A stretch of 64,000 nucleotides of DNA, from the NCBI RefSeq assembly GCF_003334335.1, contig NZ_QOWQ01000004.1; one strand, given 5' to 3'. The notes below the pieces were generated by a model. That model worked only from the letters and a program-made list of their open reading frames with translations. It made no database searches and was not told where the DNA came from. The stretch is from Escherichia coli. Lineage in GTDB: Bacteria > Pseudomonadota > Gammaproteobacteria > Enterobacterales > Enterobacteriaceae. Positions 706 through 5,938 of the stretch are shown in pieces. Made by a program: the position numbers and the translations under genes. How positions within the stretch are numbered: the first letter of the stretch is position 1; every line of letters starts with the position of its first letter.

Positions 706-778
706 GTGAGGCACTCGGTTATGAATTACCGCGATGCTACAATGTGGCGCGAAGAATGTTAACCCTCTGGAGCGTTTT

Positions 779-3208
779 GTGTCGTCGTTGCCCGTTGCTG
801 CCGTCTTACCTGAATTACTTACCGCTCTCGATTGTGCGCCGCAGGTATTATTAAGTGCGCCGACCGGGGCCGGGAAATCAACCTGGCTGCCGCTGCAACT
901 GCTGGCGCATCCCGGCATTAACGGGAAAATTATCCTGCTGGAGCCGCGTCGTCTGGCGGCGCGTAACGTCGCGCAACGGCTGGCGGAGCTGCTTAACGAA
1001 AAGCCAGGCGATACCGTTGGCTACCGGATGCGTGCGCAAAACTGCGTCGGGCCGAATACCCGCCTGGAAGTGGTTACCGAAGGCGTGCTGACGCGCATGA
1101 TCCAGCGTGACCCGGAACTGAGCGGTGTTGGACTGGTGATCCTTGATGAATTTCATGAGCGCAGCTTGCAGGCGGATTTGGCGTTGGCGCTGTTACTCGA
1201 TGTGCAACAAGGTCTGCGTGATGACCTTAAACTGCTGATTATGTCGGCTACCCTGGACAACGACCGCTTGCAGCAAATGCTGCCAGAAGCGCCTGTCGTC
1301 ATCTCAGAAGGGCGCTCGTTTCCGGTTGAACGCCGTTATTTACCGCTGCCCGCGCATCAGCGTTTTGACGATGCCGTTGCGGTAGCCACCGCTGAAATGC
1401 TGCGTCAGGAAAGCGGATCATTACTGTTATTTTTACCTGGCGTCGGAGAAATTCAGCGTGTGCAGGAACAACTGGCTTCGCGCATCGGCAGTGATGTATT
1501 GCTCTGCCCGCTGTATGGCGCGTTGTCGCTGAACGATCAGCGAAAAGCGATCCTCCCGGCACCGCAAGGGATGCGCAAAGTGGTGCTGGCGACCAATATT
1601 GCTGAAACCAGTTTAACCATTGAAGGTATTCGTCTGGTGGTGGATTGTGCCCAGGAGCGTGTGGCGCGTTTTGATCCGCGCACGGGGCTTACGCGACTGA
1701 TTACTCAACGCGTTAGCCAGGCATCCATGACGCAGCGTGCCGGGCGCGCCGGGCGTCTGGAGCCGGGTATCAGCCTGCATTTAATCGCCAAAGAACAAGC
1801 AGAACGCGCCGCGGCGCAAAGTGAACCGGAGATCTTACAAAGCGATCTTTCTGGTTTGCTGATGGAATTACTGCAATGGGGATGCAGCGATCCGGCGCAG
1901 ATGAGCTGGCTGGATCAACCGCCAGTAGTGAATCTACTGGCCGCGAAACGTCTGTTACAAATGCTGGGGGCACTGGAGGGTGAACGGCTTAGTGCGCAAG
2001 GGCAAAAAATGGCAGCGCTGGGTAACGATCCGCGTTTAGCGGCAATGCTGGTTAGCGCGAAGAACGACGACGAAGCTGCTACCGCGGCAAAAATTGCCGC
2101 CATTCTCGAAGAGCCGCCACGGATGGGCAATAGTGACCTGGGCGTGGCGTTTTCGCGCAATCAACCAGCCTGGCAGCAACGTAGTCAGCAACTGTTAAAA
2201 CGCTTAAACGTACGTGGCGGTGAGGCAGACAGTTCGCTTATCGCGCCGCTACTTGCCGGGGCGTTTGCCGATCGCATTGCTCGTCGCCGTGGGCAAGATG
2301 GACGCTATCAACTGGCAAACGGCATGGGAGCGATGCTCGATGCCAACGACGCGCTAAGCCGCCACGAATGGTTGATCGCACCGTTATTATTGCAGGGCAG
2401 CGCCTCGCCGGATGCGCGGATTTTACTGGCGCTGCTGGTCGATATTGATGAGTTAGTACAACGCTGCCCGCAGCTGGTACAGCAGTCTGACACTGTGGAG
2501 TGGGATGACGCGCAAGGTACGCTGAAAGCCTGGCGTCGGCTACAAATCGGTCAGTTGACGGTGAAAGTGCAGCCGCTGGCGAAACCGTCAGAAGACGAGT
2601 TGCATCAGGCGATGCTTAATGGCATCCGTGATAAAGGTTTAAGCGTGCTCAACTGGACGGCGGAAGCGGAACAGCTACGCTTGCGTTTGTTATGCGCCGC
2701 AAAGTGGTTGCCGGAATATGACTGGCCAGCGGTTGATGATGAAAGTTTATTGGCAGCGCTGGAAACGTGGCTGCTGCCACATATGACTGGCGTACATTCA
2801 CTACGCGGCCTGAAATCACTCGACATTTATCAGGCACTACGCGGATTACTTGATTGGGGAATGCAGCAACGTCTGGATAGTGAATTGCCTGCGCATTACA
2901 CTGTGCCGACGGGAAGCCGGATCGCCATTCGTTATCATGAAGATAACCCGCCCGCGCTGGCGGTGAGAATGCAAGAGATGTTTGGCGAGGCCACCAATCC
3001 GACGATCGCCCAGGGGCGCGTGCCGCTGGTGCTGGAGTTGCTTTCACCTGCCCAAAGGCCATTACAAATCACACGAGATTTGAGCGCCTTCTGGAAAGGA
3101 GCGTACCGTGAGGTGCAAAAAGAGATGAAAGGGCGTTATCCCAAACATGTCTGGCCGGACGACCCGGCAAATACTGCACCGACGCGACGGACGAAAAAGT
3201 ATTCGTAA
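779..3208 (+). CDS. hrpB: ATP-dependent RNA helicase HrpB (DEAH-box)
   Basis: ORF 734..3208; Walker A GAGKST, DEFH box, SAT motif; start set at in-frame GTG 779 to give the expected 809 aa. Confidence 0.9.
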   Translation: MSSLPVAAVLPELLTALDCAPQVLLSAPTGAGKSTWLPLQLLAHPGINGKIILLEPRRLAARNVAQRLAELLNEKPGDTVGYRMRAQNCVGPNTRLEVVTEGVLTRMIQRDPELSGVGLVILDEFHERSLQADLALALLLDVQQGLRDDLKLLIMSATLDNDRLQQMLPEAPVVISEGRSFPVERRYLPLPAHQRFDDAVAVATAEMLRQESGSLLLFLPGVGEIQRVQEQLASRIGSDVLLCPLYGALSLNDQRKAILPAPQGMRKVVLATNIAETSLTIEGIRLVVDCAQERVARFDPRTGLTRLITQRVSQASMTQRAGRAGRLEPGISLHLIAKEQAERAAAQSEPEILQSDLSGLLMELLQWGCSDPAQMSWLDQPPVVNLLAAKRLLQMLGALEGERLSAQGQKMAALGNDPRLAAMLVSAKNDDEAATAAKIAAILEEPPRMGNSDLGVAFSRNQPAWQQRSQQLLKRLNVRGGEADSSLIAPLLAGAFADRIARRRGQDGRYQLANGMGAMLDANDALSRHEWLIAPLLLQGSASPDARILLALLVDIDELVQRCPQLVQQSDTVEWDDAQGTLKAWRRLQIGQLTVKVQPLAKPSEDELHQAMLNGIRDKGLSVLNWTAEAEQLRLRLLCAAKWLPEYDWPAVDDESLLAALETWLLPHMTGVHSLRGLKSLDIYQALRGLLDWGMQQRLDSELPAHYTVPTGSRIAIRYHEDNPPALAVRMQEMFGEATNPTIAQGRVPLVLELLSPAQRPLQITRDLSAFWKGAYREVQKEMKGRYPKHVWPDDPANTAPTRRTKKYS

Positions 3209-3216
3209 GGTTGGTT

Positions 3217-3310
3217 TTCTCCCTCTCCCTGTGGGAGAGGGCCGGGGTGAGGGCATCAGCGCGCACGTTCACCCTCACCCTAACCCTCTCCCTCAAGGGA
3301 GAGGGGACCG
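3217..3310. repeat. GC-rich imperfect-palindromic intergenic repeat (BoxC-like) between hrpB and mrcB
   Basis: Two inverted copies of ctccctctccctgtgggagaggg..gggtgaggg; family name is from memory and uncertain. Confidence 0.55.
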
Positions 3311-3403
3311 ATCGAGCACAAATTTTGAGAGATATCTTCTTCTGTCTTGTAACAGAAGAACAGAAAATCGGGCTTTTGCGCCTGAATATTGCGGAGAAAA
3401 AGC

Positions 3404-5938
3404 ATGGCCGGGAATGACCGCGAGCCAATTGGACGCAAAGGGAAACCGACGCGTCCGGTCAAACAAAAGGTAAGCCGTCGTCGTTACGAAGATGACGATG
3501 ATTACGACGATTATGATGACTATGAGGATGAAGAACCGATGCCGCGCAAAGGTAAGGGCAAAGGCAAAGGGCGTAAGCCTCGTGGCAAACGCGGCTGGCT
3601 ATGGCTACTGCTAAAACTGGCTATCGTTTTTGCCGTGCTGATCGCCATTTACGGCGTTTATCTCGATCAAAAAATTCGTAGCCGTATTGATGGCAAGGTC
3701 TGGCAACTGCCTGCGGCAGTTTATGGCCGAATGGTCAATCTTGAGCCAGACATGACCATCAGCAAGAACGAGATGGTGAAGCTGCTGGAGGCGACCCAGT
3801 ATCGTCAGGTGTCGAAAATGACCCGTCCTGGCGAATTTACCGTGCAGGCCAACAGCATTGAGATGATTCGCCGTCCGTTTGATTTCCCGGACAGTAAAGA
3901 AGGACAGGTGCGCGCGCGTCTGACCTTTGATGGCGATCATCTGGCGACGATCGTCAATATGGAGAACAACCGTCAGTTCGGTTTCTTCCGTCTTGATCCG
4001 CGTCTGATCACCATGATCTCTTCGCCAAACGGTGAGCAGCGTCTGTTTGTGCCGCGCAGTGGTTTCCCGGATTTGCTGGTGGATACTTTGCTGGCGACAG
4101 AAGACCGTCATTTTTACGAGCATGATGGAATCAGTCTCTACTCAATCGGACGTGCGGTGCTGGCAAACCTGACCGCCGGACGCACGGTACAGGGTGCGAG
4201 TACGCTGACGCAACAGCTGGTGAAAAACCTGTTCCTCTCCAGCGAGCGTTCTTACTGGCGTAAAGCGAACGAAGCTTACATGGCGCTGATCATGGACGCG
4301 CGTTACAGCAAAGACCGTATTCTTGAGCTGTATATGAACGAGGTGTATCTCGGTCAGAGCGGCGACAACGAAATCCGCGGCTTCCCGCTGGCAAGCTTGT
4401 ATTACTTTGGTCGCCCGGTAGAAGAGCTAAGCCTCGACCAGCAGGCGCTGTTAGTCGGTATGGTGAAAGGGGCGTCCATCTACAACCCGTGGCGTAACCC
4501 AAAACTGGCGCTGGAGCGACGTAATCTGGTGCTGCGTCTGCTGCAACAGCAACAGATTATTGATCAAGAACTCTATGACATGTTGAGTGCCCGTCCGCTG
4601 GGGGTTCAGCCGCGCGGTGGGGTGATCTCTCCTCAGCCAGCCTTTATGCAACTGGTGCGTCAGGAGCTGCAGGCAAAACTGGGCGATAAGGTAAAAGATC
4701 TCTCCGGCGTGAAGATCTTCACTACCTTTGACTCGGTGGCCCAGGACGCGGCAGAAAAAGCCGCCGTGGAAGGCATTCCGGCACTGAAGAAACAGCGTAA
4801 GTTGAGCGATCTTGAAACTGCGATTGTGGTCGTCGACCGCTTTAGTGGTGAAGTTCGTGCGATGGTCGGAGGTTCTGAGCCGCAGTTTGCGGGCTACAAC
4901 CGTGCGATGCAGGCGCGTCGTTCGATTGGTTCCCTTGCAAAACCAGCGACTTATCTGACGGCCTTAAGCCAGCCGAAAATCTATCGTCTGAATACGTGGA
5001 TTGCGGATGCGCCAATTGCGCTGCGTCAGCCGAATGGCCAGGTCTGGTCACCGCAGAATGATGACCGTCGTTATAGCGAAAGCGGCAGAGTGATGCTGGT
5101 GGATGCGTTGACCCGTTCGATGAACGTGCCGACGGTAAATCTGGGGATGGCGCTGGGGCTGCCTGCGGTTACGGAGACCTGGATTAAACTGGGCGTACCG
5201 AAAGATCAGTTGCATCCGGTTCCGGCAATGCTGCTGGGGGCGTTGAACTTAACGCCAATCGAAGTGGCGCAGGCATTCCAGACCATCGCCAGCGGTGGTA
5301 ACCGTGCACCGCTTTCTGCGCTGCGTTCGGTAATCGCGGAAGATGGCAAAGTGCTGTATCAGAGCTTCCCGCAGGCGGAACGCGCTGTTCCGGCGCAGGC
5401 GGCGTATCTGACACTATGGACCATGCAGCAGGTGGTACAACGCGGTACGGGTCGTCAGCTTGGGGCGAAATACCCGAACCTGCATCTGGCAGGGAAAACA
5501 GGGACTACCAACAATAACGTAGATACCTGGTTTGCGGGCATTGACGGCAGCACGGTGACCATCACCTGGGTCGGCCGTGATAACAACCAGCCGACCAAAC
5601 TGTATGGTGCCAGCGGGGCAATGTCGATTTATCAGCGTTATCTGGCTAACCAGACGCCAACGCCGCTGAATCTTGTTCCGCCAGAAGATATTGCAGATAT
5701 GGGCGTGGACTACGACGGCAACTTTGTTTGCAGCGGTGGCATGCGTATCTTGCCGGTCTGGACCAGCGATCCGCAATCGCTGTGCCAGCAGAGCGAGATG
5801 CAGCAGCAGCCGTCAGGCAATCCGTTTGATCAGTCTTCTCAGCCGCAGCAACAGCCGCAACAGCAACCTGCTCAGCAAGAGCAGAAAGACAGCGACGGTG
5901 TAGCCGGTTGGATCAAGGATATGTTTGGTAGTAATTAA
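3404..5938 (+). CDS. mrcB: Penicillin-binding protein 1B (bifunctional glycosyltransferase/transpeptidase)
   Basis: ORF 3389..5938; start at ATG 3404 ([14 protein letters not shown]...) gives 844 aa; acidic D/Y-rich N-terminus, TM helix, transpeptidase motifs, Q-rich C-terminus. Confidence 0.95.

Follow-up and report, generated by a model that had tools for sequence, protein, structure and literature searches.

Two translation starts in the mrcB gene of Escherichia coli K-12 and the isoforms of penicillin-binding protein PBP1b

Close to the 5' end of the coding region that opens at nucleotide 3404 a second ATG lies in the same frame, between a strongly acidic and a strongly basic run of codons. 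Does this reading frame specify one protein or two, and what might the two runs contribute? The window, by which the whole 64-kb stretch of analysed DNA is meant, is E. coli K-12 sequence with 100% identity to MG1655, and its gene order, hrpB–mrcB–fhuA, is that of the E. coli chromosome. The locus is almost certainly the 5' end of mrcB (ponB), where one mRNA read in one frame yields two proteins by way of two translation starts. This interpretation of PBP1b is established knowledge, being already published and annotated. The features are collected in Table 1.

Table 1. Features of the mrcB locus, with window coordinates, strand and evidence
Feature	Coordinates	Strand	Evidence
SD core GGAG for the alpha start	3393..3396	+	7 nt before ATG 3404; anti-SD duplex -6.6 kcal/mol
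mrcB (ponB) CDS, PBP1b alpha isoform, 844 aa	3404..5938	+	ORF/translation, RefSeq annotation, NCBIfam equivalog, Pfam, PDB-chain identity
Alpha-specific basic N-terminal peptide, residues 1-27, including the reported FtsA-contact residue R6	3404..3484	+	Conservation; recruitment role from PMC13423804
Acidic D/E/Y tract, residues 29-44, imperfect period-9 DNA repeats, length variable between strains and species	3488..3535	+	Sequence, TRF
SD-like GAGGA for the gamma start, Glu41-Asp42 codons	3524..3528	+	10-11 nt before ATG 3539; duplex -6.1 kcal/mol
Gamma isoform CDS, Met46 to Asn844, in alpha's frame	3539..5938	+	NC_000913.3 annotation, literature Ribo-RET peaks, start codon conservation
Basic juxtamembrane stretch, residues 49-64, common to both isoforms; first part a period-6 DNA repeat	3548..3595	+	Sequence, TRF
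Transmembrane helix, hydrophobic residues 65-87	3596..3664	+	Sequence, AlphaFold2, Pfam PBP1_TM 1-79
Disordered Q/P-rich periplasmic C-terminal linker, residues 801-831, length varies between species	5804..5896	+	pLDDT, composition
Conserved terminal peptide, residues 832-844, predicted short helix 833-841	5897..5935	+	Conservation, AlphaFold2/DSSP

The identity of the gene was examined in several ways. Its product matched the NCBIfam equivalog NF007061 over residues 1–843 (1734 bits, cutoff 1120) and TIGR02071, PBP_1b (1247 bits, cutoff 718), and it possesses the Pfam domains PBP1_TM (residues 1–79), UB2H (113–197), Transgly (209–379) and Transpeptidase (473–714), in that order. The protein is identical to the chains of PDB entries 3VMA, 3FWL and 5FGZ over the residues in common (53/55/58 to 804), and its AlphaFold2 model has a pTM of 0.81. 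The initial annotation had recognised the N-terminus of mrcB here, and with this K-12 identity, synteny, NCBIfam, Pfam and PDB all agree.

Translation of the 844-codon ORF makes ATG 3404 the codon of Met1 and ATG 3539, in the same frame, that of residue 46, as had been proposed. The accompanying claim that Met46 begins the known shorter isoform of PBP1b is borne out by the reference genome NC_000913.3, in which a second mrcB CDS with the product 'PBP-1Bgamma' (YP_010051172.1) starts at nucleotide 164865, which corresponds to 3539 in the window. Initiation at this internal start has been detected by Ribo-RET in E. coli (10.1101/520783) and also in Salmonella Typhimurium, where the extension of the long form is 42 amino acids and peptides specific to the long form of MrcB were found (PMC11005335); this length matches Met43 in the two Salmonella loci that were compared. 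The initiation signal at Met46, on which the initial annotation had staked its proposal, is on record for E. coli, as is that at the equivalent start of Salmonella. In the laboratory, the M46L mutation is the standard route to expression of PBP1b-alpha only (PMC13423804).

The sequences around the two start codons were then compared. GGAG upstream of Met1 is kept in 80 of the 80 sequences tabulated. Inspection of the region upstream of 3539, which the initial annotation had suggested, revealed GAGGA with a predicted duplex energy of -6.1 kcal/mol as against -6.6 kcal/mol at Met1; ATG 3539 is, in other words, a canonical in-frame start codon with an SD-like sequence at a workable spacing. This GAGGA sits within the codons of the acidic tract and could be a by-product of Glu and Asp codon usage: Glu codons are GAG in 59% of cases within the SD window, 55% in the remainder of the tract and 47% in other parts of the gene, a shift too weak to separate selection from by-product. 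Windows of 80 nucleotides gave fold energies of -12.4 kcal/mol around Met46 versus -22.3 kcal/mol around Met1, but neither fold stood out from those of dinucleotide-shuffled sequences (z = -0.6 and -0.3), so that no special RNA structure can be claimed; only by its absolute energy does the fold around Met46 count as weak. A scan of both strands for promoters and terminators between 3000 and 3800 returned zero sites and hence nothing to suggest that gamma has a transcript of its own. Rfam models run at permissive E-values over 3100–3700 found nothing in the coding region; the sub-threshold matches were microRNA-like hairpins on the intergenic palindrome and a chance match to MicF (E = 0.99).

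Conservation of the internal start was assessed in 81 enterobacterial sequences, comprising the loci of 79 other species and two from E. coli. The codon at this position is ATG in 69, GTG in seven and no start codon in five, and each of the seven valine substitutions uses the start-competent GTG. A four-nucleotide SD core occurs no more than 20 nt upstream in 72 of the 74 loci that retain the start codon, and an SD-like core persists in three of the five that do not. The latter belong to Kluyvera (2), Pseudescherichia (2) and Kosakonia sp. S29; given their lack of the internal start, gamma would not be indispensable in every lineage.

The cytoplasmic tail that precedes the membrane anchor is of unusual composition. 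Residues 28–45 contain 13 Asp or Glu and no Lys or Arg, while residues 1–27 and 46–64 have 10 Lys or Arg each. When every stop-free stretch of at least 100 amino acids in any of the six reading frames of the window was scanned (32,255 sliding windows), the acidic tract was the only site with at least 13 Asp or Glu in 17 residues, and the basic stretch the only one with at least eight Lys or Arg and at least six Gly in 16 residues. An acidic tract followed by Lys-Gly repeats had been described in the initial annotation, and both are present, although the 15-letter string that it quoted corresponds to residues 30–44, its numbering being off by two. The hydrophobic membrane segment begins with W65 (nucleotide 3596), directly after the basic stretch. 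AlphaFold2 predicts a helix over residues 62–100, with high confidence from about residue 65, and gives pLDDT values below 50 for residues 1–60, the acidic tract included. The tract would be a flexible spacer that tolerates changes in length; the basic stretch would accord with the positive-inside rule and probably makes contact with anionic lipids.

Among the enterobacterial species the acidic tract ranges from 11 to 19 residues, and most species other than E. coli have three Lys-Gly units. Judged by the proteins compared, the tract is confined to the Enterobacteriaceae. In 150 representatives of PBP1b clusters formed at 50% identity, 19 have a predicted cytoplasmic tail of at least 40 residues, none of them with more than four Asp or Glu in any 15-residue window; the median tail of the 109 representatives with a detected transmembrane segment is 21 residues.

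Could the short form of PBP1b arise solely by proteolytic trimming of the full-length protein, ATG 3539 simply encoding a methionine within the chain? PBP1b-beta, a third species, counts as a breakdown product of alpha, and clipping of PBP1b by OmpT after lysis has been reported; a tail that is disordered and rich in Lys and Arg would moreover be accessible to proteases. Ribo-RET, however, traps initiating ribosomes only, and in two species it has revealed the internal start. NC_000913.3 carries the gamma CDS, M46L gives a stable alpha-only protein (PMC13423804), and the start codon (ATG or GTG in 76/81) and the upstream SD-like core (72/74) are conserved. Trimming as the only source of the short form is very improbable, and initiation profiling has already refuted it in practice.

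A different account would treat the D/Y and KG repeats as a hypervariable contingency locus, in which changes in repeat number switch or tune expression between strains. Tandem repeats do exist at the DNA level, Tandem Repeats Finder reporting imperfect repeats of period 9/18 at 3484–3531 and of period 6 at 3546–3570, and so do length alleles. The comparison of tract length across strains that the initial annotation had recommended uncovered a polymorphism: among 5,425 complete E. coli genomes, about 6% have lost, in frame, one Asp codon (about 179 genomes), one Lys-Gly unit (about 129) or both (about 11). The Asp deletion removes a GAT codon (3497–3499) and the Lys-Gly deletion six nucleotides (3557–3562). 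Against a contingency function, the repeats are short and imperfect (75–80% matches, about four copies), their units of 9 and 6 nt are multiples of three, there is one copy per genome, and about 93% of the genomes have the K-12 length. In every E. coli length variant examined the frame is preserved and Met46 and its SD are intact, and none of seven aligned E. coli sequences is a frameshifted allele. As no long, perfect, frame-shifting and highly polymorphic tract is present, a phase-variable locus was rejected; we consider it very improbable. The one- and two-codon variants presumably result from slippage within the imperfect repeats, and disorder of the region would allow them to be tolerated. 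They could shift the ratio of alpha to gamma, the coding sequence of the tract being the putative ribosome-binding region of gamma.

With two translation starts as the preferred reading, which none of the results contradicts, the scheme is as follows. Ribosomes that initiate at ATG 3404, with GGAG at a spacing of 7 nt, produce PBP1b-alpha of 844 amino acids, and those that initiate at ATG 3539 produce PBP1b-gamma, which of the cytoplasmic tail retains the basic stretch only. The purine-rich and weakly structured coding sequence of the acidic tract may double as the initiation region of gamma. The two isoforms do not differ in their membrane anchor or in their periplasmic catalytic domains.

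The alpha-specific peptide appears to be concerned with localisation. Isoform-specific septal localisation of PBP1b has been reported, the R6E substitution leads to loss of function in alpha, and an FtsA competition assay is described as well (PMC13423804). For the putative contact between alpha and FtsA, the same paper offers a model predicted with AlphaFold-Multimer, displacement of FtsZ in experiments on supported bilayers, and an assay of the POLAR type; its authors regard the contact as provisional pending biochemical and structural validation (PMC13423804). The N-terminal sequence in the window is the one used in those experiments. In the 79 species loci, residues 1–3, 5–9, 11 and 12 are invariant (consensus MAG(N/D)DREPIGRK), R6 being present in 79/79. 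Recruitment of alpha to the division site needs the N-terminal peptide, with R6 essential, and probably proceeds through binding to FtsA; septal alpha reinforces the wall there against osmotic rupture, and gamma stays dispersed around the cell envelope.

The C-terminus of PBP1b was also analysed. The Q/P-rich tail noted in the initial annotation was found, residues 798–827 (nucleotides 5795–5884) having 14 Gln and 5 Pro in 30 positions, and pLDDT is below 50 over residues 801–831. Protein length varies from 833 to 853 amino acids in the 79 species, with the variation concentrated in this linker and in the N-terminal tail. Beyond the linker stands a peptide whose core, DGVAGWIK(D/E)MFG, occurs in all but one of the 79 enterobacterial species loci (78/79) and can still be discerned in about 60% of the distant clusters of PBP1b (W836 kept in 56/91 or 62%, F841 in 48/91 or 53% of the distant 50%-cluster representatives). 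A terminal W-x-x-x-x-F motif occurs in 25 of 138 representatives, compared to 0.27 expected from shuffles. DSSP assigns a helix to residues 833–841 of the AlphaFold2 model, in which the block 831–840 has a mean pLDDT of 57. The hydrophobic moment of this very short peptide in E. coli is not clearly above that of shuffles (fraction 0.145), and a Pfam FtsA_C match at residues 800–843 is below significance (E = 0.011). Every crystal construct of PBP1b stops at residue 804, leaving the peptide outside all solved structures, and no mention of the C-terminal tail or the terminal peptide was found in the searchable PBP1b literature. Literature matches on amphipathic helices, judged by title, concerned PBP5. 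Tentatively, the tail might be a flexible tether of variable length that carries a conserved peptide (core W-hydrophobic-x-x-hydrophobic-F), possibly a short periplasmic helix that binds the membrane or a partner; we rate this as a possible but doubtful reading.

PBP1b, a target of beta-lactams, ranks among the major synthases of peptidoglycan, and with two starts a single gene can provide one pool for the division site (alpha) and another for the envelope in general (gamma). The two-start finding itself adds no new biology; it is useful as a positive control, in that a real alternative start was recovered from sequence alone. Studies of isoform balance could draw on the spread of the internal start, the lineages that have lost it, the in-frame length alleles of E. 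coli and the observation that only Enterobacteriaceae have the acidic tract. Only the conserved C-terminal peptide might open a new question.

Among known systems, the alpha/gamma pair of E. coli PBP1b (mrcB/ponB, b0149; NP_414691.1 and YP_010051172.1) is the same locus, with identical sequence and starts and zero differences. The E. coli genes infB and clpB, which were recovered alongside mrcB by Ribo-RET (10.1101/520783), likewise specify a long and a short protein from one ORF, each start having its own SD. In mrcB, by contrast, what sets alpha apart is not a folded domain but a short, disordered tail in the cytoplasm that carries a localisation peptide, and the long and short forms have identical catalytic parts. 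The MrcB pair of Salmonella Typhimurium comes from the orthologous two starts, and the extension of its long form is likewise basic first and acidic thereafter; in the Salmonella loci compared the ATG is at codon 43 behind the same GAGGA as in E. coli, but the acidic tract has 12 rather than 16 residues and there are three rather than four KG units. An analogy drawn by the authors of PMC13423804 is to the N-termini of Gram-positive class A PBPs that bind GpsB, where a disordered cytoplasmic tail also bears a short linear motif that brings the enzyme to the division site. The partner of these tails is GpsB and not FtsA, their sequences are unrelated to that of PBP1b, and isoforms from two starts are not in evidence among them. 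The terminal peptide of PBP1b, a predicted short helix after a disordered linker (GWIKDMFG in E. coli, NWFERLFGG and similar in distant homologues), would resemble the anchors of PBP5 and PBP6 and the membrane-targeting sequences of MinD and FtsA. The helices of MinD and FtsA are cytoplasmic, whereas the terminal peptide of PBP1b is periplasmic.

The 844 amino acid product of mrcB (ponB) is PBP1b by all tests run. Its score against the NCBIfam equivalog NF007061 is 1734 bits (cutoff 1120), Pfam places PBP1_TM, UB2H, Transgly and Transpeptidase along it in the order expected, and it is identical to the PBP1b chains in the crystal structures 3VMA, 3FWL and 5FGZ (coverage from residues 53, 55 and 58, respectively, to 804). 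Window positions 3300–3700 show 100% identity to E. coli K-12 MG1655 and were matched in 5,425 of 5,426 complete E. coli genomes, in single copy and annotated as mrcB in every case. Three of these matches are in plasmid-typed records; these records, and the one complete genome without any match, are likely replicon-labelling or assembly oddities. The mechanical mrcB reading frame is lengthened upstream to an in-frame TTG, which is not a plausible start; the GGAG SD sequence sits inside the extension and serves the annotated ATG.

Features of the mrcB locus (window positions)
Feature	Position	Remark
hrpB	ends 3208	5' neighbour of mrcB; longest ORF 734–3208 (ATG 734, 824 aa); RefSeq start 779 (809 aa)
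Palindromic G+C-rich repeat element	3210–3312	about 101 bp; hrpB–mrcB intergenic region
Palindrome arms, each with GGGAGAGGGnnnGGGTGAGGG	3227–3253, 3272–3298	
Upstream extension of mrcB ORF	3389–3403	TTG at 3389; five codons (MRRKS-MAGN...)
GGAG	3393–3396	7 nt upstream of Met1
mrcB	3404–5938	844-aa product
Imperfect DNA repeat, period 9/18	3484–3531	
GAT codon of Asp run	3497–3499	deleted in some genomes
GAGGA	3524–3528	10–11 nt upstream of Met46
Imperfect DNA repeat, period 6	3546–3570	
GGCAAA unit of Lys-Gly repeat	3557–3562	deleted in some genomes
Disordered Q/P linker and conserved terminal peptide	5804–5935	mrcB residues 801–844
fhuA	from 6158	3' neighbour of mrcB

The palindromic element between hrpB and mrcB is strain-dependent at this site, with full coverage in approximately 3,477 of 5,426 genomes and precise absence from strain AHM8C160RI. 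Other copies occur at one to five places per E. coli genome, flgG and ilvC being among the neighbouring genes. Rfam gave no above-threshold match on the element, only sub-threshold hairpin matches. By its appearance it is a candidate member of a dispersed intergenic repeat family already described in E. coli, possibly the 'box C' type.

The initial annotation proposed that an in-frame internal start at Met46 gives the known shorter PBP1b isoform. Its coordinates were exact, ATG 3404 being Met1 and ATG 3539 being codon 46 of the same frame. The two-start feature is not new and has been annotated before: in NC_000913.3 the gene b0149 has two CDS features, starting at 164730 (window 3404) and 164865 (window 3539), the latter named 'PBP-1Bgamma' (YP_010051172.1). 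Initiation at Met46 is also present in published profiling. Retapamulin-assisted ribosome profiling, which traps initiating ribosomes, recovered the previously characterised E. coli internal starts of three genes, mrcB, infB and clpB (bioRxiv 10.1101/520783). Both starts were likewise identified in Salmonella Typhimurium, where the long form carries 42 extra residues and yielded peptides not shared with the short one (PMC11005335); both Salmonella loci compared here have Met43, in agreement with that figure. The observation is confirmed and the two-start interpretation supported.

[quoted passage not shown] This preference of alpha for the division site was abolished by R6E, which also reproduced the septal lysis seen when ponB is deleted; alpha alone was expressed by means of M46L. 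Binding of the N-terminal peptide to FtsA is predicted at the site of the FtsZ C-terminal peptide, and the N-terminal peptide displaces FtsZ from FtsA-coated bilayers (PMC13423804). For the presence of two start codons and for the role of the first six residues as important ones, the paper refers to sequencing work of the 1980s and to Chalut et al. 2001.

Inspection of the ribosome-binding site upstream of 3539, as had been suggested, revealed a GAGGA with an anti-SD duplex energy of -6.1 kcal/mol, compared with -6.6 kcal/mol for the GGAG of Met1. This gamma SD is formed by the codons for Glu41 and Asp42, so that the coding sequence of the acidic tract contains the gamma ribosome-binding site. 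RNA folding in 80-nt windows is weak around Met46 (-12.4 kcal/mol) and reaches -22.3 kcal/mol around Met1, with no difference from shuffled controls at either start.

Conservation was examined in 81 sequences, namely the loci of 79 other species (contigs, one genome per species), K-12 and one other E. coli. The codon equivalent to Met46 is ATG in 69, GTG in seven and lost in five; Val at this position is encoded in all seven cases by GTG, which is still able to initiate. The start is lost in two Kluyvera loci (L039, L055), in the two Pseudescherichia-like genomes L041 and L057 (Pseudescherichia and an Enterobacteriaceae MAG) and in Kosakonia sp. S29 (L063). At the position equivalent to Met46 (codons 44–48) these five loci have CGT, GCG or ACG in place of ATG, GTG or TTG; they probably make the long isoform only. 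Of the 74 start-bearing loci scored, 72 have a 4-mer SD core no more than 20 nt upstream of the internal start. Such cores may reflect selection on the gamma SD or may be a by-product of Glu/Asp codons; the two are not separable in these data, the shift in Glu codon usage is mild, and an SD-like core is still present in three of the five loci lacking the start codon.

The tail itself is strongly basic over residues 1–27 (10 K/R), acidic over residues 28–45 (13 acidic, no basic) and basic again over residues 46–64 (10 basic, no acidic), with W65 the first residue of the hydrophobic membrane segment. The acidic tract noted initially is real; its numbering was off, the quoted 15-residue string being residues 30–44 and not 28–45. 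Among stop-free stretches of at least 100 aa in all six frames of the 64-kb window, these acidic and Lys/Gly densities are unique to the mrcB N-terminus, and the composition is no chance feature. AlphaFold2 predicts residues 1–60 to be disordered (pLDDT below 50), the model being confident elsewhere (mean pLDDT 85.6, pTM 0.81). Across species residues 1–12 are almost invariant, with R6 retained in 79/79, while the acidic tract spans 11–19 residues and the whole tail 58–69. At the sequence level this pattern matches the published model (PMC13423804). The acidic tract may serve as a length-tolerant flexible spacer between recruitment peptide and membrane, and the Lys-Gly/Arg stretch, which both isoforms share, would be the positive-inside segment that faces the lipid. 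One locus (L056, CACSKA010000010.1) labelled 'Chryseobacterium sp. 18061' has an enterobacterial-type mrcB, 84% identical and complete in its basic–acidic–basic tail; this assembly is probably mislabelled or contaminated.

Within E. coli, a 201-nt query (3440–3640) was run against the 5,425 genomes, 5,057 of which showed at least 99% identity, the lowest-ranked matches being shorter by 3, 6 or 9 nt. Alignment revealed two in-frame events, deletion of a GAT codon and of a GGCAAA unit, both leaving Met46 and its SD intact. Allele-specific queries found the Asp deletion in approximately 179 genomes, the Lys-Gly deletion in approximately 129 and both in approximately 11; 49 genomes were assigned to none of the four alleles. 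The repeat-length polymorphism for which a check was suggested initially is therefore present, yet minor (approximately 6%) and in frame, unlike that of a contingency locus.

The full PBP1b protein was also searched against 1.84 billion cluster representatives, and the best 150 were analysed. Of these, 109 showed a TM segment; the median length of their cytoplasmic tails is 21 residues. Among the 19 of the best 150 with predicted tails of at least 40 residues, most of them strongly basic, none exceeded four D/E per 15-residue window. The closest non-enterobacterial cluster among the best 150 (64% identity) keeps an 'EPIG.K' remnant and lacks the acidic tract. The basic–acidic–basic tail is therefore an Enterobacteriaceae feature, in agreement with the conservation analysis in PMC13423804.

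The Q/P-rich C-terminal tail, likewise noted initially, holds 14 Q and 5 P within residues 798–827. Its length varies across the 79 species, with a conserved GNPF(D/E)QS on one side and, at the terminus, a DGVAGWIK(D/E)MFG that hardly changes. When 91 distant cluster representatives were aligned, 56 (62%) had retained W836 and 48 (53%) F841, consensus endings including NWFERLFGG, SWFGRLFGG and GWFRDLFR. Of 138 full-length representatives, 25 carry a W-hydrophobic-x-x-hydrophobic-F motif within their final 25 residues (0.27 expected from shuffles). AlphaFold2 predicts disorder over residues 801–831 and then a short helix at 833–841 (mean pLDDT of block 831–840, 57), and a Pfam FtsA_C match to residues 800–843 is sub-significant (E = 0.011). 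The hydrophobic moment of the E. coli peptide does not clearly exceed that of shuffled peptides (fraction 0.145). The terminal peptide lies outside all solved structures, every crystal construct stopping at residue 804, and is not mentioned in the PBP1b literature searched. As a lead rather than a finding, it is a candidate amphipathic membrane-binding helix by analogy with those at the C-termini of PBP5, MinD and FtsA, which it resembles.
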